Assembly: GCA_000002445.1 (NCBI GenBank)
Contig: CM000207.1
Span: forward strand, 1,632,001 to 1,696,000
Origin: Trypanosoma brucei
Lineage: Eukaryota
DNA: 64,000 bases
Direction: 5' to 3'
Below the pieces are notes generated by a model. That model saw only the letters and a program-made list of their open reading frames with translations, was not told the DNA's origin and did not search any database. The position numbers and the translations under genes were made by a program. The first letter of the stretch is position 1. Each line of letters begins with the position of its first letter. Below are positions 118 to 61,397 of this stretch, in pieces.

Positions 118-135
118 TACTCGCCGAACTGCTAA

Positions 136-1770: not shown

Positions 1771-1855
1771 GGCGCGTCAGAAACAATATTAGCGTCACGG
1801 GTTCTGTTCAGATGTTGCTGTTAATTTGTTATATTAGGTATTCATCACACGCACC
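1771..1855 (-). ncRNA. Box C/D snoRNA candidate (copy in repeat unit B)
   Basis: Identical to 33..117 at an offset of +1738. Confidence 0.6.
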
Positions 1856-1873
1856 TACTCGCCGAACTGCTAA

Positions 1874-1979
1874 CCCCACACGTCAGCTCGGAGCGAAAGA
1901 TAGAGTTCACAGTTGCATCGACATAGTGTGTTTCCGTTCCGCCTACGCGGTATCGGAAGCTCTTTCATCAGTGGCGGGG
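1874..1979 (-). ncRNA. Box C/D snoRNA candidate (copy in repeat unit B)
   Basis: Identical to 136..241 at an offset of +1738. Confidence 0.45.
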
Positions 1980-19102: not shown

Positions 19103-19134
<32 letters not shown>

Positions 19135-19140
19135 GTGTAT

Positions 19141-19172
<32 letters not shown>
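19103..19172. repeat. Two (AT)n blocks flanking a palindromic ACACGTGT core (hairpin-capable inverted repeat)
   Basis: (at)14-acacgtgtatag-(at)15. tatacacgtgtata is a perfect palindrome and AT repeats are self-complementary, so this is a ~70-bp structure 50-120 nt upstream of the PABP ATG. Confidence 0.8.
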
Positions 19173-19176
<4 letters not shown>

Positions 19177-21969
19177 ACAAGTACCTTGTTCTCTTAACTT
19201 TATTTACTTTCTTCTTCCCCTCTCCCTTTGAAGGTCTATCAACTAAGTGGCACTGGATACCTTTTGTTTGCTCTTCCTTACTTTTGTGTTTTTTTTGTTA
19301 GCTACTATATTTATTTTTATTTTTGTTATATTTTTTTAGAGGCTGGACAAAGACTATCACACCAGGGGGGTGTGAAAATACCAAAGAAGAAAAAAAGAAA
19401 GCAACATATAGCGAAGTTGAAAGCAAAAAAAGTCATTGCGAGAAAAGCAGCAGCGGAGATAATAATTTAATGCACCCAAACGCACATACAGGTAAATGTA
19501 CGCGCGTCTGCCCGTATCTCTGCAACTCGCACAGCGCATGCTCGTATTTCATGAATCCTTTTTTTCATATGACCATTAGTTCAGCACTCGCTCTGTGTAT
19601 CTCTGTATGAATATGCATAAATAAATAAATCAAAACAAACATATAAATACATGCACATGCGCATATATACATATACATGCTTGTGGTTTTGTTTGTTTGA
19701 ACAGATAGGGGAGAATAAAATGGTAGAAAATGTGAAATTGGGCACCTCCTCCTTCTCTTCACCCGTTTTTTTCCTCTCCTTCATAGCACTCAGGGATAAT
19801 CGCGCCGCAACAGACAAGAACCTGTGGTATAAATAAGAACAAACGAAAAAGGAGAAGGCTTGGAAAATAATAGGAAGAGGTTAAAGGGGAAAATAATAAC
19901 AATGTCACAAGAGGCAGAACCACGATCGGGAGCAAAGGTGACAACCACGCAAGCGAATAAAGAAATGAGAGAGTTTAGCCCCCCCCCTTTTGCTCCTTAA
20001 CCTTCCCTTCATTCTTTCATGTTTCATTTATTTTGTTGTTGTTTATTTTCTCTCCCTCACTCTATCCTTCTTTCATTTTCTTCGAGGAGGAGAAGGAGGA
20101 AGGAGATTATGTCCAGTTCTCTTTTTTTTTTTTTTCCTTCTCCCCTTCCTTCTCTTTTCTACTGTAGCTTTCTCAAATCTGTTTTCACAACGGTTCCACA
20201 GAAGATGGGTGGTGCTTGCTCTGATATGCGCGGCGCTGAATCAATCAATGCGTCGGTGAAACGGACAGTAGAATGTAAGAAAGAGAGAAAGAGAGCGAGT
20301 AAAAGAATAGAGATAGGGAATGGGATTTGAAATACCGACAAAAAAGAAACAAAGAAAAAAAACATTCAGACTCACCACATAAATATTTATGAAAAACAAT
20401 CACCGATTTCATTATCCCTCCACACACACACACACGCATCTGGGTAATGCATACAGCAATGGGGGAAATGAAAGAGAAGAGAAGAAACAACGGGAAAGAT
20501 GAATCAAACAAAAAAATAAATTAATAATAACCCCAACGGAACACAAAAAAATTGTTGCGAACTCGTTGGTGGTCTGGCATGGGAGTTAATGTGAACCACA
20601 GCGAAGGTGGGAGCAACCTAAAAGGGCTAAGACAGGGAAACTCACACGGGCGTGGTCAACGAACAAGGAGGGGGAAAGACATTTGTTGTCAAGTAACAAT
20701 GAAAAAACAGTAATAATAATAATAATAAACAAAAGCAAATAAGGCAGCGGCTCCTGCGGTAATTAATGTGGTTACAGTTTTGTTGAATTTTGTTCATCAT
20801 CTTTTCCCCACACCCCTTTCCCCCCCACCTCCTCTCCACCTCTTGTGTCCTCTGGTCTCTTCACTTCCCTTAAGCCATCGCACCCTACCTCAACTCACTA
20901 CTCTCTCCTTCTTCATAGTTCTTATCTCAAAATGCAAAAAAAAATGCACAAACACAAATGTGAAAGGAGATAAAAGAGAGGACGAAAACAAGTAACATAC
21001 ATAAACACACACGCGCCTAAAAGCATAAGCAGGAACATGGCCCCCTTCATTTTCATTGTCCCTTCTTTCTCTCCTTCTCCACGATCCACCGTCCTCAGCT
21101 TCGTTACACACCCTTCAGCACACTAAAGGCACATGCGTACACATACATTACATACATGTACATACACACAAATACTTCATTCCTCACATACATCATATAC
21201 ATATATATATGTATATTTGTAGACACGCGCCCTCGGTGAATGACGCGCAGCGGCTAAACTGCAAAATTGTGTCTGTACGCTAAATTCCCTCCCCGTAACC
21301 CTCCTCTTTATCACCCCCCCCCCAACACAAACACCTTTCCTTGACACTTTGATGCATACACAACAAATGCCCTATTCCCTTCTCCCCATAGGTATTCCTT
21401 CTTGCAACGCTTTATTCCCCCAGGGGTACATGTTTTACCCATAACTTACGCACCGCTAACAGTGGCACATTTTCTCCAATTATTTTTGTCTTCCCTTCGC
21501 TGCAAAGTTCCTACACCCTGCCACCTACTTGCCTGCCTATTACGTTTCCTCTGAGCTTAATACTGGTGTATGCTCGTCTACAGCTACCACAAATGGCATC
21601 CACACAACCGATTCACCTTTCAATTTTGTGGGTTAGTCCAAAAACGCACGTAAAAAAAACCGCAAACCAAACACCCTATACACACACGACAGACTCACCC
21701 TCACACACACCACTTAATATGACAGCTCCTACATGGTCATCTCAATCCTTTTCGTCTCTCTCTCGCCCTTATCATTTTTTTAATCACTATCACTACCCCA
21801 TTACCAGTTCATCAATTCATCGGTAACGCTGAGTAGTTCTTCCACTACCACACGACAGGTATGGCACCGTAATGCACATTGTCACGGGGCCGCCGAATGC
21901 CAAGGAATGCACATCACTAATCATATTGACTTACCCCTCGTGGCACGTAGCTGAGGGCAATAACACCTG

Positions 21970-22887
21970 TCAGTAACCCAAAAGCCTCGGGTTCGGCGTG
22001 CCGTCGGGGGAAAGTCTTGTAGACATATCATCCCCGCTCATCTCCACGTATGGCGCTGTGTCTGTCCTGCAGTTCATGAGAGCTGAAGGAGCGCGGGCCG
22101 ACGAACCCCTGCTCGCGTTGCACAATAACACGGTATCGGGCGATTGTCTCACGTCCGTCAGTTCCTTAGCTGGGCCCACAGCGCGGAAAGCTGCAGAGAT
22201 GGCCGGACGTTTCCTTCTCGCAGTAGAGTCCACCACCCGCGGCCTCCCTGTTGCAGCGGCAGAAGAAACAGCTGTTGGAGTGGTCGTGGGGGATGGCTGT
22301 GAACGAATGCTCACTGCCCTCATGACGCTGGACGTATTCCGACGAGGTGTGCCATCAGGGACCCTAGTAAGCGACAGTGACGTGCCCCGCAGTACCTTTT
22401 CGGGAGAAATAGACCGTCCAGCCCGCACTTGCCGCGTGGGTTTGTTGTGCCATGTACTCCCGTTTCGCTGGGGAGTGCGACTTTTGGGCCGCTCTCTGCT
22501 GGCTACCCGAATGCCCTTGCTTTCGCAGATCACCTTATGTATGTGTGCACGTTGAGCATTGTCTTCCCACATACGACTCCAAAACAGATCCGTCTGCTTC
22601 GGGGTACAAGGGGGTTGGGGAAAAGAGCCTGTTGTGCGCCCAGGTGAGAACAAGGCGGAGCTACGCAGCGGTGATATCTTCATCCCCTTTTCTTTTCCAG
22701 TGATGCTACAAGCGATATCGCCGCTTGCGTGCTTTTGTGTGCCGTTGCTGTCGGTGCTGAGGCCCTTGCAGAACCGAGACCGTTCCGCACTACCGCGTCG
22801 CAATGCGGAGGCTGGATACTCACGCCGCAAAACAGGTGTGACACGACGGTCTGGAGTATTCTGCCTTGATGATGCCAGCGTGGACAT
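21970..22887 (-). CDS. Hypothetical Ser/Arg/Pro/Thr-rich protein (305 aa)
   Basis: ORF in the unit's orientation. The track start is a TTG; the first ATG is at 22885-22887. Low-complexity basic composition. The overlapping plus-strand ORF 21998..22555 was judged spurious. Confidence 0.4.
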   Translation of the reverse strand: MSTLASSRQNTPDRRVTPVLRREYPASALRRGSAERSRFCKGLSTDSNGTQKHASGDIACSITGKEKGMKISPLRSSALFSPGRTTGSFPQPPCTPKQTDLFWSRMWEDNAQRAHIHKVICESKGIRVASRERPKSRTPQRNGSTWHNKPTRQVRAGRSISPEKVLRGTSLSLTRVPDGTPRRNTSSVMRAVSIRSQPSPTTTPTAVSSAAATGRPRVVDSTARRKRPAISAAFRAVGPAKELTDVRQSPDTVLLCNASRGSSARAPSALMNCRTDTAPYVEMSGDDMSTRLSPDGTPNPRLLGY

Positions 22888-23565
22888 TGGTTGTTTGAAC
22901 AATTGGTGCAGTAACCACGTTCCCTTCGCTACTTCCCTGTTGCCCTCCTTTGGGATTTCTTCGCTTCAAGAAAAAGAGGTCTCCTGACTCTCTTCTACTC
23001 GTGTTTCTTTCACCCCCGCCTTTATCGCTACGGTAACACAGCACTGTAAGAACCCGCAACCTCTGCCAAATATTTGAACACCTTCCGCTTGGGCTGAACA
23101 ACAAGCTACGTCCGGGACACCGCAGCAATGTGGAATGGGTTGAGGCGACAGTCGCAATTCCTCTCCCCTGTTGCACTCTTTCTTTTTCGGTTTTATATTT
23201 CTTTGTTTGCTCTTCCGAATATTATGAATTTGTTGTTGGTACTTCTCACCTTCCTCCCTTAAACCACCGAAACACAACCTCAGATTCCTTTACCTTCAAG
23301 TGTATTTGGTAATCTGACAAGAGCAGACCTAAACCAAAAAAAAAAACCGGCAATAGGATGTAGAAAAGAGCAGATGAAGGCATCAACATCACCAAATATT
23401 TGCAATGACGATAATTAAAAAACCTACCCCTGTGTGAAGTCAGTAAGTTAACAGGAAAGCGAAACGCGGCCCCTGGAGAGCGCTGTCACACGTTTCCACT
23501 GCTCGGGACTATGCTCCCACTACCGCAAGCTCCCGTTTTCCCAAGTAACAGTGCAAGTGAGAATT

Positions 23566-25503
23566 TTATATCCCGCTCATCGCCAAACGGACAGCGACAT
23601 TGGAAAGATGAGGCATGCTCCACATCGAACAAAGCGTTTCCATGGCGCTGAAAGCCCACCCGGTTACCTCCGCGCCTGTGTTAGGTGTCTTGTTGCAATG
23701 TGGAAGAAGCAAAGCAAAGTACAAACGCCCTCCATCCATGTCCTCGTAACTCCGTAGGACGTAAAAGGCGGAGTTACTATCGCCAACAAAGTACATCCTT
23801 CTCCCCGGTGACTTAAGCGCCTGCAGTGCTACAGATTGGATTAACGCCCTTTCCTGCTCAAGGCGCTTTTCCGCATCATCGGATAACCGTCTTTGCGGGA
23901 ACACACAGTTTACCACCCAGTGCTCCAGCTGCTTCATTTCACTATCTTCATTGGCCTGTCCCCCGCCGTTGGAACGTTCCTTGGCTGCAGAAACTGTCAT
24001 GTTAGATGTGATAGCACCAAAATTGTAGTGGTGCCGGTACCATGCACGTTTCCCAGGTCGCCGTGTGCAGTCGCTCACTAAGAGGAAAGTTGTCCCGTTT
24101 CGTTCGCGTGTTATACTCAAAAGCAATTGCACCAAGCACCGGCAGCCCCTCGTTAGCACAAAGTCGCAATCTGATCCCAATACAGGAGATAAACATAAAC
24201 CAAAAGGTGGTGTCAACTTTACTGGTATCTGACGCGGACCGTCGTCGCTACGGCGCCGAAATGAATTACCGCGCCAAGCCTCTAAACCGGCCATTAATAA
24301 GTCATAGGGGCTGGTGAAACGGAGCTGGCGGCCAGAATTCCGAACCGCTGCTGGCGGTCCGCTCGTTGATGCACCGTTTTGACGCGCATTTTTTTCTTTT
24401 TCTCCCTCACTTTTCGCCACACTTTCACCTTCTGGTAAAGGTGTAACGTTTGAGGATGGAATCTGACACTCATTTTCCACTCTGTTCTGCTCATCGATGG
24501 CCGGTGAGCCACCCTTCAATCGATCACGGGACGTGGGCTCTTTCTTATGGGAAAAGGATGTTAAGCAGTTTCTGAATAGAAATGAGAGTCGGCTTTGCAG
24601 ACCCCACACGATGTTCAACATTATCCATATGAATGGACACCGCATATGGAACAGGGCGGGTAACGCAAAAGCTTTAGAGGAAGTAGAGTTCGACTGCAGA
24701 GATCGCGGAAATTTGCAGACCACCTGACTCTCAAAATTGTGGTAATGAGAAAGTTCCGCAAGGCGACTCGGAGTAAGCAAGCCTAATTCCTCCCACAACT
24801 TCTGCTGCTTCGCCATCTCCCGCTGCATCGTTCGGGCCATGTGCACGTAACGAACAGCAACCATTACGTTCACGCACCGAAAGGAGTTCTCCACTATCTC
24901 AGCCACGCACCGCAGGAGCTCGATCCGCACTGCGAGGGTGTGTTGTAAAATATAAAGGAAGTACGTGAAACTCGGTGCTTTCCCCAACTCAATCTCCGCA
25001 AGAGTTCGCTGAGAGCCCTCTTTCGCGTCCTGCATCCACTTCAGGTTGGCCGCAGTGCTTACCTCCGACCAATGTACCGCAAACACGTGGGGCGGGAACT
25101 CCGCACGACCCCCCGATGAATATGTCGCCCCGAATAATCGTAACCATAACCTTCTGAACTCATTGAGATGGTTAGTGTACGATATAGCGGCCACAGCATC
25201 TTCGCCTCGAAGAAAGCTACCATCGGCAGCCTCTAACGACTCACCAAGTTTCTTCCAGTTATCCTGACAAACGTTAAGTGCCCCATCAAATGCCTCGGTA
25301 GACCCACTTAGGGCGCGTGACAGGCCGATAAGGGACGATACGGCTTTGTCGACAATGGCAGGCAAGTAGCGGAGGTGTGACCCTCGTCGCCGAGCCTCCT
25401 GTGGGCCTGCAAGACTTAAAATTGCCTCTTGGGCAACGTCTAGCATTCCAGAGTGAAACAAGCTCATCTTTACATTTTTATGGACATTTACCTTATCGCT
25501 CAT
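23566..25503 (-). CDS. Conserved hypothetical protein (645 aa)
   Basis: Long ORF with ATG at 25501-25503, complex composition, in the unit's orientation. Confidence 0.65.
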   Translation of the reverse strand: MSDKVNVHKNVKMSLFHSGMLDVAQEAILSLAGPQEARRRGSHLRYLPAIVDKAVSSLIGLSRALSGSTEAFDGALNVCQDNWKKLGESLEAADGSFLRGEDAVAAISYTNHLNEFRRLWLRLFGATYSSGGRAEFPPHVFAVHWSEVSTAANLKWMQDAKEGSQRTLAEIELGKAPSFTYFLYILQHTLAVRIELLRCVAEIVENSFRCVNVMVAVRYVHMARTMQREMAKQQKLWEELGLLTPSRLAELSHYHNFESQVVCKFPRSLQSNSTSSKAFALPALFHMRCPFIWIMLNIVWGLQSRLSFLFRNCLTSFSHKKEPTSRDRLKGGSPAIDEQNRVENECQIPSSNVTPLPEGESVAKSEGEKEKNARQNGASTSGPPAAVRNSGRQLRFTSPYDLLMAGLEAWRGNSFRRRSDDGPRQIPVKLTPPFGLCLSPVLGSDCDFVLTRGCRCLVQLLLSITRERNGTTFLLVSDCTRRPGKRAWYRHHYNFGAITSNMTVSAAKERSNGGGQANEDSEMKQLEHWVVNCVFPQRRLSDDAEKRLEQERALIQSVALQALKSPGRRMYFVGDSNSAFYVLRSYEDMDGGRLYFALLLPHCNKTPNTGAEVTGWAFSAMETLCSMWSMPHLSNVAVRLAMSGI

Positions 25504-26811: not shown

Positions 26812-28188
26812 TCATGTGAAGGACACGGGTCTCCCGTGAGAATCGAGGAGAGGCTCGTCATAACCGAGAGCTTTGCGAAGTGTTACACCCTTGAAGGATT
26901 TCATAGACCGCAAAAGTTTTCCATCGGCGCCATCGTACACAACCATCATGCCATCCCCTTCCCTTGCGGTGGGAGGTGCGGCAGCGAATTCAATGTGGAC
27001 GTCGGAATGGAACTCATCCATGAAGGACCACTTTTTGATTCGCTCGAAGATCTCCCGATTTGGTTTACCTCCTTCAATAACGACATCGATTTGGGTGAGC
27101 TTTTCCGAAGCCCCAAGTACACGGCGCCATTGCGGGCGGTCCGTCGTGCGCACGAAAACGTTAATTATGGTCTCGTAGTCACATAGCAAGAGGTGAAGCT
27201 CCAGTTGCGCCACCTGCGGTATCTTTGGGCGTCTCAGCAGCAGCTTTGCCGCTTCCGCAGGCTCCACACGCCTCATTACGAGCTTTCGTGTATCAAACCC
27301 GCAGCGAAGAGTACGATCATAAAGATCCTCTACGACATCACCAGATTTACGTTTTAAATCCGTATTGCGATCTTTGGGGCGCAGACGCTTTTGTTTCGCG
27401 AGCTCCACCATCTCAGGGTACGTAAGGAACTTGCTAGTACGTTGTCCGGGGTTAACCAATATACCGAACTGCGATGATGATAACGCTATGGTGGCGAGCG
27501 CACTTAGGTGGTGAATGGACCCAACCGCGGTGACGGGAAAGGGAAGCTTACAGAACTCCTCGTAGCGTGTACCCATTCGAGGTACTGGAAACCAGCACGA
27601 CTCAAATGCATCTACCCGACCAAAGTAGTGATCAAGATATTCCTCCATTGAGAAAACTGGAAGGACAAGCATCCCGTTCGGCATTTCCATCAGTACGGGA
27701 AGTCGCTTCTCTTCACATTCATCTAGATTAATCCATAACTTCTTTCCCTTGGGGAAGACATCCGTCGCATCCTTCTGCAGTTCACAGCACATCTCTGTGG
27801 TACGAAGGAAAAGATACACTTCCTGCCAACCCTCATGATCAGGCCCCTCATTGTGGACGGTGTCCAGTGCGGCTCTCAATCGGTCCAGTTTCGCGTGATT
27901 CCTCATAAATTGATTGCTCACCATAATTTCTTTTGTCATATGCATCCGCTGTTCCTCTGGAACATAAGGGGGGTCATCTGGAGTAACGTTGTGCGCGTCG
28001 GCGCCGAAGAGTGTCATCGCGTCTTTCAGTCGGTCCGGCACAGGAGGTTGAGCTCGGTAACCTTTATTTGGAATACGACCCTGAAAACGCCGTTGAGACG
28101 CGACGGCGGAATTTATAGTGGTAGCAGCAACTACTTCGCATCGGACGGTGCTGTAAATAGATGAGGTCAGCAGAGCGCACCGGTGCAT
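26812..28188 (-). CDS. Conserved hypothetical protein (458 aa), possibly organellar
   Basis: The track ORF begins at a TTG (28270-28272); the first ATG is at 28186-28188 (MHRCALLTSSIYSTVR...). Basic, hydroxylated N-terminus. Confidence 0.55.
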   Translation of the reverse strand: MHRCALLTSSIYSTVRCEVVAATTINSAVASQRRFQGRIPNKGYRAQPPVPDRLKDAMTLFGADAHNVTPDDPPYVPEEQRMHMTKEIMVSNQFMRNHAKLDRLRAALDTVHNEGPDHEGWQEVYLFLRTTEMCCELQKDATDVFPKGKKLWINLDECEEKRLPVLMEMPNGMLVLPVFSMEEYLDHYFGRVDAFESCWFPVPRMGTRYEEFCKLPFPVTAVGSIHHLSALATIALSSSQFGILVNPGQRTSKFLTYPEMVELAKQKRLRPKDRNTDLKRKSGDVVEDLYDRTLRCGFDTRKLVMRRVEPAEAAKLLLRRPKIPQVAQLELHLLLCDYETIINVFVRTTDRPQWRRVLGASEKLTQIDVVIEGGKPNREIFERIKKWSFMDEFHSDVHIEFAAAPPTAREGDGMMVVYDGADGKLLRSMKSFKGVTLRKALGYDEPLLDSHGRPVSFT

Positions 28189-28598
28189 GTGAACCCGTAC
28201 CACCCCCGCGATCACAGCGTCGAAACGTTTTCCGTTACAGTTGACTCGGGAAGCACACCGCTGCTGGTGCAAAATACCTAAAAGAAAATATTCAAAAAAA
28301 AGAATATGAAATAATGATGTGCAAGCAAATAATCATAGTGAACACCAGTGAGTAAGTGATAAAGAAAAGCAATAAAAGTTGTACGTGCCTTCGCGTAAAG
28401 GGCCAAACTACGATGGAGCGCAACGTGTGGGTCCAGTTTACAGCTGTAAAGAGATTGGAGAGAGAGAATATAGATGGAAAATCACTCTCCGGGCACATGT
28501 TGACTTCCTCTCCGCCTTTTGCGTGCCGTACCGCTCGGTGATCCAAATCTTCACCAAAACACACACGGTGGGTAGTCCTTGGATAATCGACTGGGCTG

Positions 28599-30252: not shown

Positions 30253-31260
30253 TCAACGACGCCTTGAAGAAGACGAGCCCCGAGAGCTTAGCCGGCGACG
30301 CCCTGATACAGTTGTCCGCCCTGAGGGCAGGAGAGGCTCCTTTGCCGCTGCATCCTTTTTCCTGTCGCACTCTTTCTGCCAATTATACAGCCGCCGGACT
30401 AACCGATCCGCCCTTCGGGGCGAAATTGAAAAACCACTAATCACCCTCCTTTCCTCTCTCTGTTGGATAATCTGCCTTCGCAGTTGTTGCCTCACAAGCC
30501 TGCAGCCCCCTTCAAAGCAGAGGCGATCACCCACGTCTGTAAACGGGTCGTCTTTGCGAAGTTTGTCTGCCAACGTCATTGAGTTAGCGGTAAGTGTGGG
30601 ACGAAACGTACAATCAGAATCAGACTTCATCAGTATCACCTGCTCACGCATACGTCTTTTTTCAATGGCCCTGCTTTGTACCTCCTTATAGCATTCATGC
30701 GGCGGCCTGTATCCGCCCGCGCACAGCAGCCTCGACGTTGACGTTATCTTGGGCTTGAATGTTAGTTTATCCTCCTGTTCCTTCAACTTCCTCTCGCTCT
30801 CAGCCCTCTTTTCAGCAATGTGCTTTAGCTGAGCCATCGCAAGAGCGTAAAGCCGCGACCCAGCATTTGTTGCAACAGGTGAAACGCTACGCGAACCGGT
30901 TGAGGGCTCTCCGCCGTGCCCATTTTTTCGCTCCACGTACTTGCTTTGTGCCCTCGCCTTCGAGGCGGTGGTGGGAAGTAACAGATGGCTAAATGCCGCA
31001 GGATCCGAGCGTCTGGCATGTTTCCGTAGTGGTGTGGGTTCCTCTCGCGGACTCGGCGGGGCACGCGCAACCCGCTCCTTACGCAGCGGTGTAGGATTCG
31101 GCACACTGGCCCTCCTAGTTGAAGCACGGCCAAACTTTTGGGTTCCAGAACGAGTTCGAGAGAAGCGACCCCCGTCGCCACCCCATTCATCTATGTAACG
31201 AGTATCATTGTCATCCTTGTAATCGATGGAAACTGAACGACGGTTCACCAAGATACTCAT
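30253..31260 (-). CDS. Hypothetical basic protein (335 aa) with Arg/Ser-rich termini and repeated T-F-K/R-P motifs
   Basis: ATG at 31258-31260. Contains LTFKPKIT and CTFRPTLT motifs and a coiled-coil-like middle. Confidence 0.5.
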   Translation of the reverse strand: MSILVNRRSVSIDYKDDNDTRYIDEWGGDGGRFSRTRSGTQKFGRASTRRASVPNPTPLRKERVARAPPSPREEPTPLRKHARRSDPAAFSHLLLPTTASKARAQSKYVERKNGHGGEPSTGSRSVSPVATNAGSRLYALAMAQLKHIAEKRAESERKLKEQEDKLTFKPKITSTSRLLCAGGYRPPHECYKEVQSRAIEKRRMREQVILMKSDSDCTFRPTLTANSMTLADKLRKDDPFTDVGDRLCFEGGCRLVRQQLRRQIIQQREERRVISGFSISPRRADRLVRRLYNWQKECDRKKDAAAKEPLLPSGRTTVSGRRRLSSRGSSSSRRR

Positions 31261-33301: not shown

Positions 33302-34108
33302 TCAGTCGTCACTGTCCAACTGAGCAAACTGTTCTGCCAACAGAAGTCGATCGAATATGTGGAGCAGTTCCTCTTCATAGTTTACCTCGTGGCGCTCGTT
33401 AAGCTCAGCTTCAACCCGTAAAATCCGAAGGTCACGAGTTGTGAGATGGTAAGGTGCGCAGCGCAGTACATCCATATACTGGTCAATTGATAGCAAAGAA
33501 GTATCGGATCGGTCAGCGAAGCGTAAAAGTTTCAAAAATTCCTGCTGCACGTCAATCCTTGAAAGCCCATGTACAGTGGTATCCTCGCGGTTGCTCACCT
33601 GAAAGTTGTGCTCGGTACTCCAAACGAAACGCAACGCTGGAAACGACTCACACGCGAACTCTGCATAGTTCACTGGTTCCTTCTCAACCAGTTGCGTGGC
33701 CGTCAGAACATAGAGAGCTTGGGGAAGAGTTAATCCGTATGATTTGAGTAAAGCCTCCTTAATCGCCTTCACGGGTAGAACCCCATTGTTTTCGCTATCA
33801 TGTTCAACAAACATATCTATATATTGCTGCAACCGCTCCCCATATTCCTCCTCTTCCTCCTCCCGTGTGTTGGGTCGTGATTCGAGGTGTGGCAACGCTG
33901 GTGCCGTCATACGATGCTCTCCGGCAGGTTTTGCGTCCATCTCACGTGCTAGTCGTTTGAAGTAGTTGGCACTCCACTGCAAAATATCTTCCGGTTGCTC
34001 CCGTAGCACCTCGCGGGCATATTCCTTCAATACCCCAGGAAACTCGGGTGGGAGGTGTTGACGCGGTTGATAACGATTGGCTAATGTGCGCTCACGGAAT
34101 GTTTCCAT
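33302..34108 (-). CDS. RIIa (PKA regulatory-subunit dimerisation/docking-like) domain protein with a possible EF-hand (268 aa); likely flagellar
   Basis: N-terminal LPPEFPGVLKEYAREVLREQPEDILQWSANYFKRLA is a classic RIIa fold signature. DMFVEHDSENNGVLPVKAIKEAL resembles an EF-hand loop. The track start is a TTG; the first ATG is at 34106-34108. Confidence 0.6.
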   Translation of the reverse strand: METFRERTLANRYQPRQHLPPEFPGVLKEYAREVLREQPEDILQWSANYFKRLAREMDAKPAGEHRMTAPALPHLESRPNTREEEEEEYGERLQQYIDMFVEHDSENNGVLPVKAIKEALLKSYGLTLPQALYVLTATQLVEKEPVNYAEFACESFPALRFVWSTEHNFQVSNREDTTVHGLSRIDVQQEFLKLLRFADRSDTSLLSIDQYMDVLRCAPYHLTTRDLRILRVEAELNERHEVNYEEELLHIFDRLLLAEQFAQLDSDD

Positions 34109-35130
34109 CGTACCCAAAGTGGAAAAAAGAAAAAGAATAGAAGAATAAAGAAACTATTACTACCTCTTTCCTCCCTTTGCCTTTCTTTTCTTATTTTTTT
34201 TCCACTGGTGTTGAAAAGAACTCGCAGCAAAAGCGTGAAACGCAGGGGTCTCTTGATTCCCTTCGGTGTGGGCCTCCTCCACTACTCTAACTATTATTTA
34301 TTCTTTGAATGGCACCTTTTTTGTACACTCGCTTCTTCTTGATTGCTAGAAATAAACCAAGCGCCAAAGTGTTCTAGTGCGTTGTACTTGGATGGTATCG
34401 CTCTGGATACCACAAGAAAAAAAAAGTGGGAAAGCGTGAGGTGGGTTGGCGAAAAAAATAAAAAAAGAAGAGAAAAAAAACAAAGTGCGGAGAAGTCAAC
34501 TGCGACAAGTGTCGAATGCATAAAGTCGTCAACAGAAAAGAAAAAAACAGAGACAAGGGCAAAGAACTGCGCACGCGCACGCGCACAAGCTGCACAAACA
34601 GGCATGCGTGTAGTGGTAGTAGTAAAACTATACGAGTTAATTGCGGCAATGTCTGCCCCGGAGGCCGTGAACCAACCACCAAATTAGGAGGAAGGAGACG
34701 GAAGAAGAAGAAGAAAAGACAGTGTCGTGGAATTCAGAATTCAGCAAAACACAAACGGGGGGAAAATTAGACTACACTAAAGATAAAAAAAAAGATGTAA
34801 GTGTTTAGCCGCGGCCATGTATACGACTCTTCCCACTGTTGGATAAGGAGGTTGATGTGTAAAGTGGTCTATGGGGTTATTTTTCAGTTGCTATAGGCCT
34901 CTCATCCGCTGCTGTTCCTTTTTTGCTCTTTTACTTCACACGATTTAGGAGCATATGTATACATGCGTCAAAGACTGCTTGCGGCTAATACATTCAAAGA
35001 AATGTCTCATGGTTCAACGAATGATAACCGCAACTCGCAGACCCACACATGAAATGCGACAGCAGACGGAAACGGAAAAAAAAATAAAAAAAAAGAGAGG
35101 GCTATCTGTAATTCTTTACGTACATCACTT

Positions 35131-38100
35131 TTACACGCCACCGTAGAGCATCTGGTTGAGTTCCTCCGAAAGGGGGAATTTTTCCTCATCAAGCACCTCA
35201 CAAACTCCATTACTGCGCACAATAAACTTTCTGTTGTCATCCAGCCACCGTAACTCGTATTTCCCGCCTACAAACACCTGCACAGCCCCGTTGGAGAGCA
35301 TAAAGCCACTCATAGAGTTTTCCATATGGAAGCGGTACCAGCGAACAAATACAAAGGGATCACCATTGCATTGAAATGCTGTTTGTGGTGGGCAATAAAC
35401 AGACATAATACCGGGAGACCGCCGCTGTTTTAACATATGTGTGTCGTGGGTTTCGACCAATTGAAGGACATCGTAGATCTTCTTCTCCTCATTCAATGCT
35501 TGTGCCAACGACAAGATACGCGCCACGTCATTATCTTCCTCGATATCAACACGATCTACGACGTATACGATGTGTTCCAACACTGACAGCACAGCTGAGT
35601 GCACAGAAAAACTATGGTTGAAAAATGTAACACCAGTACGTCCCGGCTGAATATGATATGTGACAGCGACTGAGTCGCCTCCTTCTTCCTCCATAGGATA
35701 AAAGTGGTAGTAGCGTATCCAATCACCGTTAAGCAGCATGTGACGTTCCTCAGGTGTGGGTGGGACACTCCGAGACCCGACAGAGAGACGCTCCATCGGT
35801 TTCCATTCACCACTTAGCGTGCGGGGTATTCCTTCGAACCTCCTTGGCGGCGGTACAACTTCCGATTTACTCATTGACAAACGCTCTGCCTTCCTCCGCG
35901 CCACAATTCCCACTACCTCAGCCGCCGGCTCTCGAGACCTCTTGCGTTCCAGTGCTGGCACCGATGCTCGTCGTTTCGGCCGACCACGCTTCGGACTGAC
36001 TGGTTTCACCTCCAACCGACTTTTTACACCAGTCCTAGCAGCTTCGGTTGGAACACTACGACTGCGACGCCCCTGAGATCTCCCCCTTGGCTTGTTCACT
36101 GTAGCTGCATCATTTAGCCTCTTCACGCACGAGCAACTGTGCCTGCGAAGCGCACCTGAACTGGCAAACTCCCTGCCGCAGGCGTCGCAGGTGTAATTAT
36201 TGGCATACTCCTCGTAACATTTTGGACACATGTCCCTACCGCATTGGCAGTGAAAGAAGTACATACTTGATCCAACTGGTTCGAATTCAAAACAGCAGAC
36301 ATCACATACGAAGCCGTACCTGTACTTCTTGTTTGCGCGACCCATTTCCCTGAATGTATGCGGGTGAGTGGCGGACTTTCGCTGCTCTTTCTCCAACCAC
36401 ACCATATGCTCTCGATCAAATAACTCCGTCACGACAGTGGATAGCCGGGTCACCATGCATGAATGCTCTAAGAGTAAAAGCGACGTTTTGACGTTTCGCA
36501 CAGCATTCTCCATGGTAACAAATCCTGATACAACCTCCGCCCCATTCCCCTTCTTTTTACGGGCCGTAACAGTGCTGCCTCGCCTTGCCCCAACTCCATG
36601 GCTATTGTTCCCTCCCCCTCGTTTGGTATCAACCGTATGTTCAATAGGCGATGTGCTCCGTTGCACAGTGCCATTTGCACTTTTTGGCTTGGGATCTCTT
36701 TTCCCCACGAGATTTATACCCTTCGCTCGATCCACATTGTTCGAACGAGGTTGACGCCCCTGTGGTGAGCGCTGGCCGATATTCAATCCTGTTTTCGTCT
36801 CTTCTTTGCCCTCCGCCTCCAACAATACCAATGAGGCTGCGGCACTGCCTGTAGGGAAATCCGCATTTCCACGGCCTTCCGTTGTGCAAGGAACAGGCGT
36901 TACTGTCCTACTTCTTGCATTCACGCGAGAGTTTGCACGTGACGCTGACGAAGCCGCGGCCCTAGCGGATCTCGACCTGCTCCGTTTCAGGCTCCTCTCT
37001 GTTTCCTCGGCTATAACAGACGAAATCTCACGAATAGGCTTTTTCACTTTAGGGTCGGGCCTTACATCGTAGACTTGATGTATCGGCACACCACCCACCG
37101 ATAACTCCTCCCTAGCGACGAATTTCAAAGACGAACGGTGTCCCTCCTCCGTCTCTTCCTCGTCAGAACCTCTTATTCTGCTTTCTGTGAGGCTTGCGTT
37201 CACATCGGCACTTCGCTGCTCGACAGCACGCAGCAAATGAGACTCATCGTGCGAAAGTAGAAAATCATCCTCCACGCCGAGGAAAGTAGTTACCACCCTT
37301 GGGGTTGCTCTGCGCCTATCGCCCCATTCCGGTCTCATGAGGAGAGCGTTGATATCTGGACGATTTTGTGGATCAGGGACAAGGACGAAGTCCACAAGTC
37401 CCCGTAGCTTCCTGGAGACGCTACAACCACTAGGCCACGACCATTCAGCGGCAGCGACACGACGAAGCAACTCAGCGTTTTCCTTCGGTATTTCGTGGGA
37501 CTGCTTGTCATTCGGAGAGGCGTCGGTGGGTATGGCAGCAGTGTTATGCATATTGGTGTCAGCAGTTCTCTCTGTCATCCGCGGGGCACCTGTGGAGGCA
37601 TACGGATTCCGTTGTGCGAAAATTGAAAAAAGCACCATTCCCACAGACCACACATCTGCTGCCGCACCAACGCTAACTCTCTGATCCCTGTGTAAAGCGT
37701 TATGAGCCATCTCCGGGGCCATGAATGCGATAGTGCCAGCGACTACATCTCCAGGAGGAGGGTTCCACACAGACGTCGCAAGTCCAAAATCTATGAGTTT
37801 TAAGTTACCATCCAAATCGAAGACAAAATTCTGAAGTTTAACATCCCTGTGGATGCAATGTTGTTCATGGACGTACGCCACTGCTTGCACTACTTGGTAT
37901 GCAACGAACAACTTGTCCGCCTCATCTGTTAGACACTTTGACAGAAGGAAGTCATGCAGTGTGTGTGGGAAACACAATTCCATCCCCACAGCCATGAGGT
38001 CCCCGGACTTATTCAATGCACCAAATAAAAACCGTGGCAGCAGGAGTTTTCCTTTTGTGCAGACCCTTCCAAGCACTTCCAGTTCCTGCTTGAGCCGTGT

Positions 38101-38307
38101 AACCTTTCCTGTTGTAATCTTTAATGCCAATCTCGGATATTCATCACAAGAGGCTCTGTAAACGGTGCCAAAAGAACCTTGTCCAATGCGTTCGCACGCC
38201 TCCAGGGATAAACACTTTCCTTGAGATGAATCACGAGAAGGCAATCGCACCCTCACAGCACGCACGCAGCCCTCCTCGTACAATATTTGTTCTACTGTGC
38301 CAATCAT
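35131..38307 (-). CDS. Large Ser/Thr protein kinase (1058 aa) with polo-kinase-like catalytic domain, central C2H2-like zinc finger and two C-terminal polo-box-like repeats
   Basis: Kinase motifs IGQGSFGTVY, LALKI, HRDVKLQNFVF, IDFGLA, FMAPEM. Cys/His cluster YTCDACGREFASSGALRRHSCSC. C-terminal WIRYYHF...VTFFNHSF and VRWYRFHMENSMSGFMLSNGAVQVFV resemble polo-box 1 and 2 (compare Plk1 [24 protein letters not shown]). The track start is a TTG; the first ATG is at 38305-38307. Confidence 0.75.
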   Translation of the reverse strand: MIGTVEQILYEEGCVRAVRVRLPSRDSSQGKCLSLEACERIGQGSFGTVYRASCDEYPRLALKITTGKVTRLKQELEVLGRVCTKGKLLLPRFLFGALNKSGDLMAVGMELCFPHTLHDFLLSKCLTDEADKLFVAYQVVQAVAYVHEQHCIHRDVKLQNFVFDLDGNLKLIDFGLATSVWNPPPGDVVAGTIAFMAPEMAHNALHRDQRVSVGAAADVWSVGMVLFSIFAQRNPYASTGAPRMTERTADTNMHNTAAIPTDASPNDKQSHEIPKENAELLRRVAAAEWSWPSGCSVSRKLRGLVDFVLVPDPQNRPDINALLMRPEWGDRRRATPRVVTTFLGVEDDFLLSHDESHLLRAVEQRSADVNASLTESRIRGSDEEETEEGHRSSLKFVAREELSVGGVPIHQVYDVRPDPKVKKPIREISSVIAEETERSLKRSRSRSARAAASSASRANSRVNARSRTVTPVPCTTEGRGNADFPTGSAAASLVLLEAEGKEETKTGLNIGQRSPQGRQPRSNNVDRAKGINLVGKRDPKPKSANGTVQRSTSPIEHTVDTKRGGGNNSHGVGARRGSTVTARKKKGNGAEVVSGFVTMENAVRNVKTSLLLLEHSCMVTRLSTVVTELFDREHMVWLEKEQRKSATHPHTFREMGRANKKYRYGFVCDVCCFEFEPVGSSMYFFHCQCGRDMCPKCYEEYANNYTCDACGREFASSGALRRHSCSCVKRLNDAATVNKPRGRSQGRRSRSVPTEAARTGVKSRLEVKPVSPKRGRPKRRASVPALERKRSREPAAEVVGIVARRKAERLSMSKSEVVPPPRRFEGIPRTLSGEWKPMERLSVGSRSVPPTPEERHMLLNGDWIRYYHFYPMEEEGGDSVAVTYHIQPGRTGVTFFNHSFSVHSAVLSVLEHIVYVVDRVDIEEDNDVARILSLAQALNEEKKIYDVLQLVETHDTHMLKQRRSPGIMSVYCPPQTAFQCNGDPFVFVRWYRFHMENSMSGFMLSNGAVQVFVGGKYELRWLDDNRKFIVRSNGVCEVLDEEKFPLSEELNQMLYGGV

Positions 38308-38760
38308 ATCCAAAAAATGCAAGTGTACTATCTCCCTTGCGCTTTACTGGTAATATATAATTAATAAATAAAGAACAAGAGGGGGAAAAAAGGAGAGTAA
38401 CCAAAAACAATGTAACAACAACAAAGGAAAGGAAAGGAAATTTACCAATGACTGTGTTATTGTTCCTTCTTTTTTCTTTCTTCTTTTTTTCTTGATCCTT
38501 TTCTTTTTTTTCTTCTCGTGCGTGTGGCAGTGAACACAATTGTTTATTGATGTGAATTGCGAAAAGCAACAACAACAACTTCAGCAGATAGGTGGAAAAC
38601 CGGTCACAAAAGTAGAGTGCAAAGGGGTGAGAAGTTACCCGCTACTAATCCCCGAGCTGTAAAAAAAAAAAAAAGCAACGGAGTATAATTTTCGAAGGAA
38701 AAAAGCACCAGGAGTCACGAAATAAACAAAAATAAAAATATATATATATATGCAACACCA

Positions 38761-39099
38761 TCACAAACTCTCAGAGAACGACGGATGCGCTGCTGCACAG
38801 ATAAATTCATCCCGCACCTTCTCATCTGTCAGGCACTGTAAGAAATATAATATTTTCACCGATTTTAGTTTCTTCCGCATTGCAGCAGTCGCCGAATATT
38901 TATGCAGCACTTCCCGAAGATATGATTGGACTTCTTCATTTAAAAGCGACGAGCAAAGCGCTGCACCGCTAGTAGGCATGAGCGAATGCGACACAATCAA
39001 ATGAATAGCACGCGCATTGGAGAAACATTCATTTAAAAGTTTAAGTTCGTTTTGCTCCCTTGTGATATCAGCGGATGCTTCAGCAGGAATATGTTCCAT
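38761..39099 (-). CDS. Small hypothetical protein (112 aa)
   Basis: ATG at 39097-39099, in the unit's orientation, non-repetitive. Confidence 0.4.
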   Translation of the reverse strand: MEHIPAEASADITREQNELKLLNECFSNARAIHLIVSHSLMPTSGAALCSSLLNEEVQSYLREVLHKYSATAAMRKKLKSVKILYFLQCLTDEKVRDEFICAAAHPSFSESL

Positions 39100-39147
39100 A
39101 CCCTTATGTTTTTATTTCCTATCCAACACACATATATGTGCGTATTA

Positions 39148-39157
<10 letters not shown>

Positions 39158-39215
<58 letters not shown>
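39158..39215. repeat. (TA)n microsatellite, about 29 units
   Basis: Uninterrupted tatata... run directly upstream of the 38761-39099 gene. Confidence 0.9.
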
Positions 39216-39218
<3 letters not shown>

Positions 39219-42115
39219 TAGTAATAGATCTAAAGCACTCGAGTTGTATGCCCATTGCGGTGACGCATCATATGGGTGAAGAGATAAAAATTAAAAAAAA
39301 AAAATAAAGAAAAGAAAAGAAGGTAAAAGTGCGATGAAGATCAAAACATAAAAACTACAAAAAATAAAATAAAAGCGTTTCACTCAGCACATAAAGGGTA
39401 CGAGACAGTCAGACAATACGCAAAGGCGATGAATTTGAAGGTGATCAAACTTTGTCGATGAGTTTCCTTTGGTTTGGTTTTTTTAAAAAAAAAAACAAAG
39501 TCAAATAGAAAAAATGGAAAGGAAGGGAAAAAAAAAGGAATAGGAGTACGAAGCATCAGAAAGGAACATTAAAACCAAACAAACAAATTTCTTCCCTTGC
39601 ATGTGTACACGTGCCCAGCACAATAGATAATTAGTATTGGAAAAGAAAAATAGCGGGACAACTGAGACGAAACAACCAAAGGCACTCAGCAACCCGCTTG
39701 TCACAAAGTTGCAGTGAGAAAAGAGTTAATTGACAACAACAAAAAAAAAAAAAACAGCACCCCAAAACAACACCAACAACAACAGAAAAATAAAAAAAAA
39801 ACATGAAACAACAAAAGACGAAACTATACGCCATTTGATGCGGCGTCACGGCTACTGCTAAAAGAAACAAAAGAAATCACACTATAATTCAGGCGTAAAA
39901 AAGAAAATGTCAAAAACAGACATATCACCAAAAACTACACCGATCCCTCTCCTGCCAGAGCCCATTTTTTTATACGATCTTCAGGGGAGCGTAAACATAA
40001 TCTTAAGAAAAAAAAAAGGAAAAAAGTGTTAGTGTTAAACATGAAAAAAAAGAAAAAGAGCAGCAACAACAACAAATGAAAAGACGTTTAAAGTATGTCT
40101 CCCATGTTTCACTGTGTGCCACATATCTTTCATTTTCTTCTTCATTTCCTCCTACACGCGCAAGACAAAAACAAACGAAAACAAAAAAAAAACAAACACA
40201 TTCGAAGAAAAAAAAGAATGAGGAAACAAACAAACATTCACATATCCCTCTAAAACAAGGGTTAGGGTGAGACACCCCCGCCCCCTCCCAAAAAAAAAAA
40301 AACATTTAACACCTATGCGTTATTTTAGTTTCATCTCCCACCTCCTTCAATATGCATATGCATATCACCTCTTTATTTAATTGTTTCTACACCCCCTTTT
40401 TTTTTTTACATATTTCCATTGTCGCCATTACACACACGCATACGCATACGCCTATATATATATATATATATATATATTATATTTCACTTCTTTTTTGCCT
40501 CTTTTTTCATCCTTCTTTTTTCCAAAAAGGAAGTTGATTTGAATCATTCATTTTTCGTTGTTTTCCCCCTTTATTTATTTCCCCCTTCTCATTCTTCAGT
40601 GAGACGTATACGCAACGAAAGTTAAGTGCAGCTGATGAGTTAATGAACACACTGCTGTGAAGAGAGACAGACACACACACAAGCGCAGATAAGAGTGAAA
40701 AAAATGAAAATAAATGAATGAAAATAAGCAAAAGGAGGGAAAGAAAAAGAAAAAAGAAAAAATTTCTTGCATGCGTAAGACGAGTACATAGACGCACAGA
40801 CACATGATGTCAAAATGTAGCGCGGATGAAGGAGGCATCCGCAACAACAAAAAAAAATATATATATATATATTCATTGCAGGAATATACAACAAGGGGGA
40901 AAATCGGAAATTGTAAACTAAAACAAAAATCACCACTTTTCATTTTTGTTCCCCCTCCCCTTTCTTTCTTTTTCTCTCCCTTCTTTTCTTCTTTCCTCTT
41001 TTTTTTTTTTTCGCTCACCGTCACTAATTAAAACAACACCTCCCGCACACGGACACATCCCTCTCCCTCTTCCCCTTCCACCGATTGGATGCAAAAATTA
41101 AAATAAAATAAAACGTAAATAAGTAAGTAACAAATTTTTAAAAAAATGAGACGGAAAGGCAGACGGGAAATTGAATGCAGAAAGGGTGAAAAATAAAAAT
41201 AAAAATAATAGTAATAGTAACAATAAAGATAATAATGATAATCATCATCATCACAATAATCATCCCACCACTAAGCAAAGAAGAAAAAAAAGGTACGTAA
41301 CAACGCTTGAAGGAAAACAACAAAAAAAGTAGGATGGAAGAGTTTAAGGAAAGGAAAGGTAAGGTAAGACTGGATTCCGTGCAATTACACTCAAAAGTGC
41401 ATAAGCAAGCAAACAAACACACATAAATAAATATGTGTATATGCGCGTAAAGGACAAGAACATCTTTTACTTCATTCCTCTCGCTGCTTCCTTATATTAG
41501 AAAAGGTTAACAGCGATTCCTCTTCTTTTTGCTTTTCTCTTTCCATCCCCGCCCCGCCTCCTCTGTTTTTTTTTTCCTTCTTCTTTAATAGGCTTAGGCA
41601 TTTGTTTGGTGGTATTTGTGGCATTTCCCCACGCCGCTTCATATTGTTTGTTTTGTTTTGAAAAAAAAAAAAGTGGAAAATTATCAAAAGTAATAGAACG
41701 TGTAAGTGGCTAATGTCGAAAGACAGAAGCGGGTCGGAACAACAACAAATCATAAGGCCAAATAACCAGCTGTTTGATCATTTAACCCAACCCGAAACAT
41801 ATATATTTACTTATTTATTTTATATATGTGATATTTACATCTATATGCAACGAAAAGAAAAAGAAGCAGAGCAACCGGAAGAAACAAATAAACGTAGGAG
41901 GCATAAGCGCATCCTCTCCTTCCACTGTTTTCTCTCCAGATTCTTTTCATCCTTTGGATTTTTTTGGATTCTCCTCCATTCTCATTTTCTTTCCTTCTTC
42001 TTCCCCTTTCCCCCCCCCATTAACTTAAAAAAAAGAGAAACAAAGACCTCCCCTACCCCATTTCATGTCTTCACTCTCAGTCCCCTCATTTCGTTTGGTA
42101 ATTGAAGTGTATACT

Positions 42116-53951: not shown

Positions 53952-54962
53952 CTAAAACCCACGGAACTCCAATTGTTGTGATGGTGCTAACGGGGGCAAC
54001 CGCTTATCCCCACTCTCGGGATACGACTCAAAGTTACTTGTGTCGCCGGGGCTCTTCACTTTTACAGGAATGGGAGCGTGATAATGACGTCCATAGAGTT
54101 TCTCCCAATTCGCACCACGGAAGAATGGGTGATTCTTCACATCAGCTACGCCATCCTTCAGCGTGCCCAACCGTTTCGTGTGATCCGTTTGCAATAAACC
54201 CTTTACGAGATCCCGCGCACGGGAGTCAAACCAATTGGGGAATTTGAACCGGCCCGCAAGAATCTTTTCATACGTCCGAATTGGGGTTTCATCAAAAAAG
54301 GGAGGATGGCCAGCTATGAATTCATACAGCAAAACACCCATCGTCCACCAATCCACAGCCTTCCCATGTCCTTTGCTCTGAATTACCTCAGGTGCAAGAT
54401 ACTCAGGTGTCCCACATAACGTATAGGTACGATCCGTCACCTTCTTAGCAAAACCAAAATCAGTCACCTTGACGTGTCCCTTCCCATCAAGTAGCAGATT
54501 CTCAGGTTTCAAGTCACGGTAGATAATGTCCTTCGAGTGTAAATATTCAAAGGCCAACACAAGCTCCGCATGATAGAACTTCGCTACGTCATTCGGGAAA
54601 CGGCCTGCGGAACGAAGGTGAGTAAATACCTCACCACCTACCACAAATTCTAGAACAAAGTAGACGCGGTTCTCATCCTGGAAGGAACACATCATGTTCA
54701 CAATGAAGGGGTGTGACAACTCCATTAGAATTTGCTTCTCTTGGTTCAGGTGTTGTACCTGCTTCATCTTTAGTATCTCACGCTTCTTTAGACATTTTAT
54801 TGCATAATACTCCCCCCTGCTCTTCAGTTTTGCAATGCGCACGCGACCAAACGAGCCGGTCCCTAGCGTGTCACCCATTTCAAAGTCACTCAGCTTCCAT
54901 CCCGATGTGTCAGGTTTGGTAAACACATACGTTTGCGGTTCCGTCGACGTGGCTACAGGCAT
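53952..54962 (-). CDS. PKAC: cAMP-dependent protein kinase catalytic subunit (AGC kinase, PKAC), 336 aa
   Basis: GTGSFGRV, AIK, HRDLKPENLLLD, DFGFAK, GTPEYLAPE and a C-terminal hydrophobic-motif tail. The track ORF is extended at the N-terminus by pyrimidine-tract translation; the kinase-like sequence begins at the ATG at 54960-54962 (MPVATSTEP...). Confidence 0.9.
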   Translation of the reverse strand: MPVATSTEPQTYVFTKPDTSGWKLSDFEMGDTLGTGSFGRVRIAKLKSRGEYYAIKCLKKREILKMKQVQHLNQEKQILMELSHPFIVNMMCSFQDENRVYFVLEFVVGGEVFTHLRSAGRFPNDVAKFYHAELVLAFEYLHSKDIIYRDLKPENLLLDGKGHVKVTDFGFAKKVTDRTYTLCGTPEYLAPEVIQSKGHGKAVDWWTMGVLLYEFIAGHPPFFDETPIRTYEKILAGRFKFPNWFDSRARDLVKGLLQTDHTKRLGTLKDGVADVKNHPFFRGANWEKLYGRHYHAPIPVKVKSPGDTSNFESYPESGDKRLPPLAPSQQLEFRGF

Positions 54963-55210
54963 CCGCACTACCAGTACCTGCTCAAGCTCTGTCAAAAAAG
55001 AATAATGTATAAATAAATGTAGACTTACGTATGCAACAAAATAGCTTATTTTTGTGGAGAAAACAAAAACGGAAAGAGGAGTAAAGGGTTCTTCGACAGT
55101 ATTCAAAATATAAAAAAGTAACACCAACAGCAGAAGAAGGAAAGGCAAAAGGGAGAACAAGAGTGCGCCCGTGACCTCCCTCCGATATTCATTGAAATTC
55201 TGTAACAATG
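54963..55210 (-). promoter_or_regulatory. Polypyrimidine tract / trans-splice acceptor region upstream of PKAC
   Basis: The plus strand is purine-rich (aaaacggaaagaggagtaaagg...cagaagaaggaaaggcaaaagggagaacaagag), i.e. a pyrimidine tract on the transcribed strand. Confidence 0.5.
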
Positions 55211-59759: not shown

Positions 59760-61397
59760 CTAGCGGCGCTGGTTGGGCTGCTTCGCCTGCTGCTGTTGTG
59801 CGAAAAGCACTTGTGTGCCGGGAGGAAAACCTGTGGCACCCACAGTGTATGGTGCCGTACCATCCGCGGGGCGGTAAAACATCATCGGTTGCTGAGCCTG
59901 ACTAGGCACAAAACCTGCAACATAATGGCCGGGCATGGCCGGCTGCGCGTAATACGGTGCTCCTTGAGCGCCACTCACAATTATTGGAACGGGTTGAGGG
60001 ACGCCAGTTTGACGGTGCTGCGGCTGCGGTGGAGCTTGCACCAGTTTTTGCATTTGTTGTGGTGCAACCTTCTGAACGGGAACCCCCCACGGCATTTGGA
60101 CAGGCTGTTGCTGCGGCCGTTGTTGCTGTGGGACATGTGCAGGTAGTTGGGTTGTCGACATTTGTGGCGGCGTCATATGGCCGGAAACCGAAAGTAACGG
60201 TGGGGCCCCTGTGACGGGTACAGCACTTCCTGGCATTTGAGACATGACCGCTGCCTGCGGCTGAGTCTGTGGGCGACCCAAACTTTGCTTCACCTGCATG
60301 AGTAACTGCTGCTCCAGGGCTGTTGCCTCAATAGGTTTACTTTCCACCTCCGGTTGCCTGCTCACCTTCTGCTCGCTAATGAGTCTCTGCTCCAAATCGT
60401 GAGCGTTCCACGTGCGGGGTTGGTTTGACGCCGATGTCTCGGTGGGTTGTGTAGCTGGCGCACGGGCACTCGTAGCAGCACCCGCTTCCACCGAAGGCGC
60501 TGCGGGTACCGAGTGCAAAACTGCTGGTTGCATCGATGGCTGTGTTGGCACCGCGCCCGCATGCTGGGTCGGTGCTGTCGACGGAACACCTAAGGACAGA
60601 CTACCGGTCAAAAGTGAATTCATACCTACATTGGCGGAAGGATTCTTACGTTCAAGCGCCGCATCAACGCCGGTGGGCTTCGAAGCTTCCACATTGTTCC
60701 ACACAACGTTACCGCTCGCTGGGACCATGGACGGCAAGGCCCACGGGTCTTTGACCTGATTCAAAGAGGCACTTGTCAGGGGTTCTGATATTGCCTGCAC
60801 CAGAGGAGCAGAGGTAGGGTTTGTATCCTGGAAACCAGAGTTTGCCCCAGAGAAGAAGCGTGACTTGGCTACTTTCTTCCCCCCCTCACCACTTGGTGCT
60901 ATGCTAACCATCAACCGTTCTATCTCATCGTCAACCTCTGCCTTTACTTCAGTTCTGGAGGGGGAAGAGGGACCCCATTTGTTGGTGTCGTTTTTGCCCT
61001 CATCCTTTGAAGAGGCTGCAGCGTCACTCCTTTGCTTCTCCCTCTCCATGGTTTCCTGCAGTGCCTGCTTCTTAATGGCATTCCGCTCCAACTCATACTT
61101 GTACCCCTCTTCGAATGCTTCCTGATCCCTGCTTCCCCTCCAAGAACGGGATGGGGGAGCAAAGCGTTCGCTGTTTGTTGCCCGCTTCGATGCTGGCCCA
61201 AGCGCTCCATTTTTCGAGTCGGATGACTTTTGACCGGTGGCGTCGTGGCGGGTTCCATCCGGCGAAGAGGACTGCACGGGGCACTCCGTTTCGATTATGC
61301 TGAATTTCTGTAGTACCTCCTCGCTCAAGGTGAATTCTTCTGGTCTCGGTGCAAGTGAGAGAAGTTCAGGGCGAGTGTATCGAATTGTAGTTCTCAT
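59760..61397 (-). CDS. 4E-IP: Gln/Pro-rich protein with N-terminal Y-x4-L-phi eIF4E-binding motif; candidate 4E-interacting protein (4E-IP), 545 aa
   Basis: The N-terminus MRTTIRYTRPELLSLAP contains YTRPELL, fitting the YxxxxL-phi eIF4E-binding consensus. The rest is a low-complexity Q/P/A-rich tail. The track start is a TTG; the first ATG is at 61395-61397. Assignment is by motif and remembered synteny. Confidence 0.6.
   Translation of the reverse strand: MRTTIRYTRPELLSLAPRPEEFTLSEEVLQKFSIIETECPVQSSSPDGTRHDATGQKSSDSKNGALGPASKRATNSERFAPPSRSWRGSRDQEAFEEGYKYELERNAIKKQALQETMEREKQRSDAAASSKDEGKNDTNKWGPSSPSRTEVKAEVDDEIERLMVSIAPSGEGGKKVAKSRFFSGANSGFQDTNPTSAPLVQAISEPLTSASLNQVKDPWALPSMVPASGNVVWNNVEASKPTGVDAALERKNPSANVGMNSLLTGSLSLGVPSTAPTQHAGAVPTQPSMQPAVLHSVPAAPSVEAGAATSARAPATQPTETSASNQPRTWNAHDLEQRLISEQKVSRQPEVESKPIEATALEQQLLMQVKQSLGRPQTQPQAAVMSQMPGSAVPVTGAPPLLSVSGHMTPPQMSTTQLPAHVPQQQRPQQQPVQMPWGVPVQKVAPQQMQKLVQAPPQPQHRQTGVPQPVPIIVSGAQGAPYYAQPAMPGHYVAGFVPSQAQQPMMFYRPADGTAPYTVGATGFPPGTQVLFAQQQQAKQPNQRR

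Follow-up and report, generated by a model that had tools for sequence, protein, structure and literature searches.

The window analysed here, a stretch of 64,000 nt, holds an uninterrupted open reading frame on the minus strand at 35131..38322 (ORF scan). With the ATG at 38307 as start the frame gives a protein of 1058 aa, and positions 35131–38307 then contain exactly the coding sequence and its stop codon. The original prediction, made from the letters of the DNA, had given these coordinates, and all the motifs quoted in it could be placed on the translation at the residues given below. A bacterial-code ORF finder had set the start at a TTG, position 38322, and this was rejected since the ATG at 38307 gives the same protein as in the database and the residue numbers used in the literature.

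The translation is 100% identical over 1058 aa to P0001, 'protein kinase, putative [Trypanosoma brucei brucei TREU927]'. A sequence search of PDB showed residues 847–1058 to be 100% identical to entry 8A0K, which was deposited by Ishii et al. 2022 as the divergent polo-box domain (DPB) of T. brucei KKT3, construct KKT3 847–1058 (PMC9727816). The published KKT3 landmarks K63, M109, W863, C668, C671, D692, C707, C710 and 771–780 all match the residues found here. From the full-length database identity, the identity to 8A0K and the fit of every published residue, the gene is almost certainly that of T. brucei KKT3, which belongs constitutively, and close to the centromere, to the unconventional kinetochore of kinetoplastids. 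The protein has the three domains of a KKT3, an N-terminal kinase, a central CL (centromere-localisation) or Cys-rich domain and a C-terminal DPB; everything about KKT3 that could be tested agreed with the identification, and no evidence conflicts with it. The features of the gene are the following.

35131..38307, minus strand: KKT3 coding sequence, 1058 aa plus stop; open reading frame, translation identical to P0001
37333..38196, minus strand: protein kinase domain, aa 38–325; Pfam Pkinase E=4.8e-38, 131.5 bits
36208..36375, minus strand: CL zinc-binding domain, about aa 645–700; phmmer match to 6TLY
36127..36195, minus strand: single C2H2-type zinc finger, aa 705–727, C707-x2-C710-x12-H723-x3-C727; aligns with the C2H2 finger of 6TLY
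35968..35997, minus strand: AT-hook / SPKK DNA-binding motif, aa 771–780, SPKRGRPKRR; named in PMC8178753
35134..35769, minus strand: DPB, aa 847–1058
35428–35751, minus strand: first polo box (PB1), about aa 853–960
35143–35346, minus strand: second polo box (PB2), about aa 988–1055

Orthologs of KKT3 with 46–55% local identity were found by database homologue search in Trypanosoma, Leishmania, Leptomonas, Phytomonas and others. The database name is 'kinetoplastid kinetochore protein 3 / KKT3' for the proteins of L. donovani and Novymonas, and several orthologs (among P0002–P0006) have the precomputed Pfam family PF26235. The protein does not differ from the characterised T. brucei KKT3 (PDB 8A0K; PMC4821238, PMC8178753, PMC9727816), they are the same. 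The gene is already known, named, crystallised and functionally dissected, and the locus itself holds nothing new. The original prediction read it as a second, divergent polo-box kinase; the structural side of this reading is supported, but not the novelty it implied, as the protein was published in 2014–2016 and crystal structures followed later.

The surroundings of the gene are typical in their strand bias; 20 of the 21 ORFs of at least 200 aa in the window lie on the minus strand, which is what one would expect of a polycistronic unit in a trypanosomatid. By Pfam the neighbours are BBS1, RPC4, a DUF2009 family protein, an HBS1-like GTPase, a PABP-like protein and a TPR protein, and further an SPB4-like DEAD-box helicase, an α/β-hydrolase, a Ras-family GTPase, a mitochondrial carrier and a zf-MIZ protein, while a DnaJ gene is situated upstream of KKT3 and an RIIa-domain gene immediately downstream. 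None of the Pfam-assigned neighbours in the window suggests a functional linkage with KKT3. A second protein kinase gene, of conventional type, is found at 53952–55208 (minus strand, 418 aa, Pfam Pkinase E=2e-71). Five ORFs of 310–645 aa without a Pfam match at E≤0.001 (21970–22902, 23566–25503, 26812–28272, 30253–31260 and 59760–61403, all on the minus strand) probably encode kinetoplastid-specific hypothetical proteins.

The RIIa (PKA-R dimerisation/docking) domain gene directly downstream occupies 33302–34117 on the minus strand. The EukProt gene model P0029 (1360 aa) combines the KKT3 kinase and a DPB (aa 749–942) with a Pfam RIIa domain that follows the DPB. This would mean either that the synteny is conserved and two genes were merged in the model, or that the genes are truly fused in that organism. 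On the other side, between KKT3 and the DnaJ gene, 38323–42115 is a region of 3.8 kb with a GC content of 0.35–0.37 and no ORF longer than 142 aa. An (AT)34 microsatellite was observed at 39148–39215 and a second (AT)n repeat at 19103–19177, adjoining the PABP-like gene; the low-GC region and the (AT)n stretches probably belong to long UTRs or to the sequence between genes. At the beginning of the window there are two copies of the H/ACA snoRNA TB9Cs2H1 (Rfam RF01554, described there as a trypanosomatid snoRNA), at 1610–1679 and 3346–3415 on the minus strand, scoring 86.8 and 70.5 bits. The 'TB9' of the name is taken here to stand for chromosome 9. They lie within a direct repeat of about 1738 bp (window 1–3415), in which the compared 300-nt segments were 96–100% identical. 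It looks like a tandemly repeated snoRNA cluster extending past the start of the window, and other snoRNAs that are unmodelled in Rfam may be present in it.

The kinase domain shows the motifs GQGSFG (42–47), K63, the gatekeeper M109, HRD (153–155), DFG (173–175) and APE (197–199), and as judged from the sequence its Pfam match is far above chance, so that a protein kinase had been correctly predicted. It had also been claimed that the catalytic domain resembles that of polo-like kinases (PLKs), and this did not hold. The two stretches quoted for the likeness, HRDVKLQNFVF (aa 153–163) and IDFGLATSV (aa 172–180), are present, but HRDxKxxN and DFG are motifs general to protein kinases. The top PDB kinase matches were MELK, STE20/MST/PAK, BRAF and SNF1, with 63.6–55.0 bits, and no PLK was found among the best 60 matches listed. 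The human PLK1 kinase domain (the sequence used is identical to PDB 2yac) gave 50.1 bits and E=8.6e-13, which is significant, yet under all 60 of the listed matches, and a specific PLK affinity of the kinase domain was for this reason rejected. In the literature the kinase of KKT2 and KKT3 is described as unaffiliated. KKT12 is phosphorylated by KKT3 in vitro, and kinase-dead (K63), analogue-sensitive and kinase-deleted alleles of KKT3 are viable in procyclic cells.

At the other end of the protein the relationship to PLKs is of a different kind. The polo-box motifs WIRYY (863–867), FFN (895–897), WYRF (990–993) and LSNGAVQVFV (1004–1013) are all there, and fold comparison shows that the DPB has the tandem polo-box fold, in which two β6α units form the polo-box domain (PBD). 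The PBDs of PLKs are the closest folds outside the KKT proteins, at a DPB identity of 12–15%. Two polo-box repeats had been predicted, and the motifs and the fold bear this out, while the sequence searches did not reach any PLK. Pfam POLO_box (PF00659) had no match to KKT3 at E≤10, nor to three KKT3 orthologs and one KKT2-like protein at E≤1, and a search of the whole PDB sequence set at E≤10 with a profile HMM built from 21 DPBs returned only 8a0k and 8a0j. When the same profile was compared by hhalign with the human PLK1 PBD (sequence identical to PDB 1q4o) the probability was 11%, and only a stretch in PB2 was paired, YVRWFR…LSNGxVQ in the DPB profile with YLRTWFRT…LSNGSVQ in PLK1. It is the very LSNG stretch in which a likeness to Plk1 had been pointed out beforehand. 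Since Pfam, the DPB profile and hhalign all fail or are marginal, the polo-box homology is established by fold comparison only and is beyond the reach of the sequence methods used.

The local likeness in PB2, the order of a kinase followed by tandem polo boxes, the PLK PBDs as nearest non-KKT folds, and the UniRef label 'Serine/threonine-protein kinase PLK' on the KKT2-like homolog P0045 of T. theileri could all be taken to mean that the protein is a bona fide second PLK paralogue, which like PLK1 would dock through its polo-box domain on phospho-primed substrates and then phosphorylate them. We regard this as very improbable. Apart from the silent POLO_box and DPB-profile searches and a kinase domain in which PLK1 ranks under at least 60 non-PLK sequences, the pincer that recognises the phosphopeptide in PLK1 is probably not conserved; the HTK motif (H538/K540) stands opposite a gap on the KKT3 side, in an hhalign alignment of low confidence, and the crystal-structure paper reports that some key residues for phosphopeptide recognition are missing from the DPB. 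The PB1 tryptophan W863 is conserved (cf. Trp414 of the PLK1 pincer). The functional data point the same way, as it is the kinase activity that is dispensable and the DPB that is essential. KKT3 falls outside the PLKs by sequence profile and by kinase affinity, and probably also by its phosphopeptide pincer.

What KKT3 has in common with PLK1, PLK2 and Cdc5 is the PLK-type domain order and the polo-box fold. It differs in carrying an insert of about 520 residues with the zinc-binding CL domain, and in being a structural component of the kinetochore, a role that PLK has in neither of the two kinetochore systems. It has been proposed that an ancestral PLK gained a Cys-rich domain and was then duplicated to give KKT2, KKT3 and KKT20. 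Descent from a PLK is a proposal resting on fold and domain order; the sequence support is marginal, and the kinase domain is without a clear PLK affinity.

The segments between the kinase and the polo boxes total about 520 residues and are interrupted by the folded zinc-binding domain. They had been predicted as a Ser/Arg-rich linker of about 600 residues; the composition is right, with R 12–20% and S 11% in the inter-domain segments, but the length is not, and the linker is not continuous. The zinc finger predicted inside it is borne out in part. The Cys/His cluster spans aa 648–727, and the central region matched 6TLY, the central domain of B. saltans KKT2, in phmmer with E=9e-4 and with the cysteines aligned. 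The 6TLY structure consists of a two-zinc CL domain followed by one C2H2-type finger, and the cluster of KKT3 likewise covers a zinc-binding CL domain, with a C2H2-type finger below the Pfam threshold behind it. Candidate ligands in the CL domain are H648, H650, C668, C671, H686, C687, C689, C694 and C697, together with an invariant D692. In an alignment of 43 KKT3/KKT2 sequences C668, C671, C687, C689, D692, C694 and C697 were invariant (43/43), and H648, H650 and H686 were conserved in 41–42.

The finger itself is less strictly kept. Its ligands C707, C710 and H723 are found in 42 of the 43 sequences, and the column of the fourth ligand is variable. The Pfam zf-C2H2 matches at aa 705–724 are sub-threshold (E=6e-4 to 0.08), and the gathering thresholds for classical C2H2 fingers were missed, with 19.8 bits against a cutoff of 27 for zf-C2H2_11 and 14.2 against 25.2 for zf-C2H2. 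A description of its zinc ligands was not found in the text of PMC8178753. The published mutants separate the two modules; C668A/C671A and D692A/E abolish the kinetochore localisation of KKT3, and growth is not rescued by the CL mutants C668A/C671A and D692A, whereas the finger mutant C707A/C710A localises normally, supports growth and is fully functional (PMC8178753). The variable fourth ligand of the finger, as compared to the invariant ligands of the CL domain, is consistent with this dispensability. The finger was also considered as the key functional zinc module, which was rejected from its sub-threshold scores, the unconserved fourth ligand and the functional mutant.

A C2H2-type finger at aa 705–727 and an AT-hook/SPKK motif at 771–780 could also be combined into a kinase that binds DNA sequence-specifically, the two elements recognising centromeric repeats and so specifying the position of the kinetochore. 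Such a role is extremely improbable and largely refuted by the published mutants. Not only is the C707A/C710A mutant normal in localisation and growth, but the fragment KKT3 594–728, which is without the AT-hook/SPKK motif, still localises; fragments 594–811 and 594–728 are each sufficient (PMC8178753). The finger also lacks a conserved fourth Zn ligand in KKT3 orthologs, and its C2H2 scores are under the gathering thresholds.

The identification as KKT3 also places the protein next to its paralogue KKT2, for which the DPB of T. congolense (8A0J) and the central domain of B. saltans (6TLY) are available. The KKT2-like proteins P0044 and P0045 show only 30% identity to KKT3 over 29% of the query. 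The kinase activity of KKT2 is essential, and that of KKT3 dispensable. The DPBs differ in their surface charge patterns and in their partners; in vitro KKT1C is bound directly by the DPB of KKT2 and not by that of KKT3, which recruits KKT2 instead.

KKT3 is essential and sits at kinetochores constitutively (localisation: PMC8178753), and its DPB is essential as well. The CL domain directs KKT3 to the centromeres, at all stages of the cell cycle. On the model of KKT2, it may do so by using its invariant Asp692 to bind histone H3 at the unmodified N-terminus. Binding of the H3 N-terminus has been shown for KKT2 only, and the authors of the preprint propose the same for KKT3 since D692 is conserved. 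According to this 2026 preprint the KKT2/3 CL has an overall fold similar to ZZ-type zinc fingers that bind the H3 N-terminus (p300 ZZ, PDB 6DS6), and shares the invariant aspartate of these domains; here D692 was the same in every aligned sequence. The AT-hook/SPKK motifs may supply extra DNA contacts. The C-terminal DPB is a module for protein–protein interactions, apparently independent of phosphorylation and essential for growth, which recruits KKT2, directly or indirectly, and in this way starts the assembly of the kinetochore. The N-terminal kinase is active and phosphorylates KKT12 of the KKT8 complex, but procyclic cells can do without this activity, and even without the whole domain.

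It is conceivable that the CL domain of KKT3 reads the unmodified (non-Nα-methylated) H3 N-terminus via Asp692 and helps to specify centromeres epigenetically without CENP-A, and that the conserved kinase has a life-stage-specific role. We hold this tentatively, with the balance tipping slightly against it, and both ideas are already hypotheses in the literature. KKT3 acts like a scaffold or receptor at the base of the kinetochore, unlike a canonical PLK.

The structural interpretation in the original prediction is supported as correct and perceptive. It can be seen as a positive control, in which an unaided reading of the DNA correctly picked up a relationship to polo boxes. This relationship escapes Pfam and profile HMMs, and it was established through sensitive profile searches and, later on, a crystal structure. 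The biological importance of the gene lies in the position of KKT3 at the base of a kinetoplastid kinetochore that works without CENP-A, and in T. brucei, Leishmania and T. cruzi the kinetoplastid kinetochore proteins have been described as targets for drugs.
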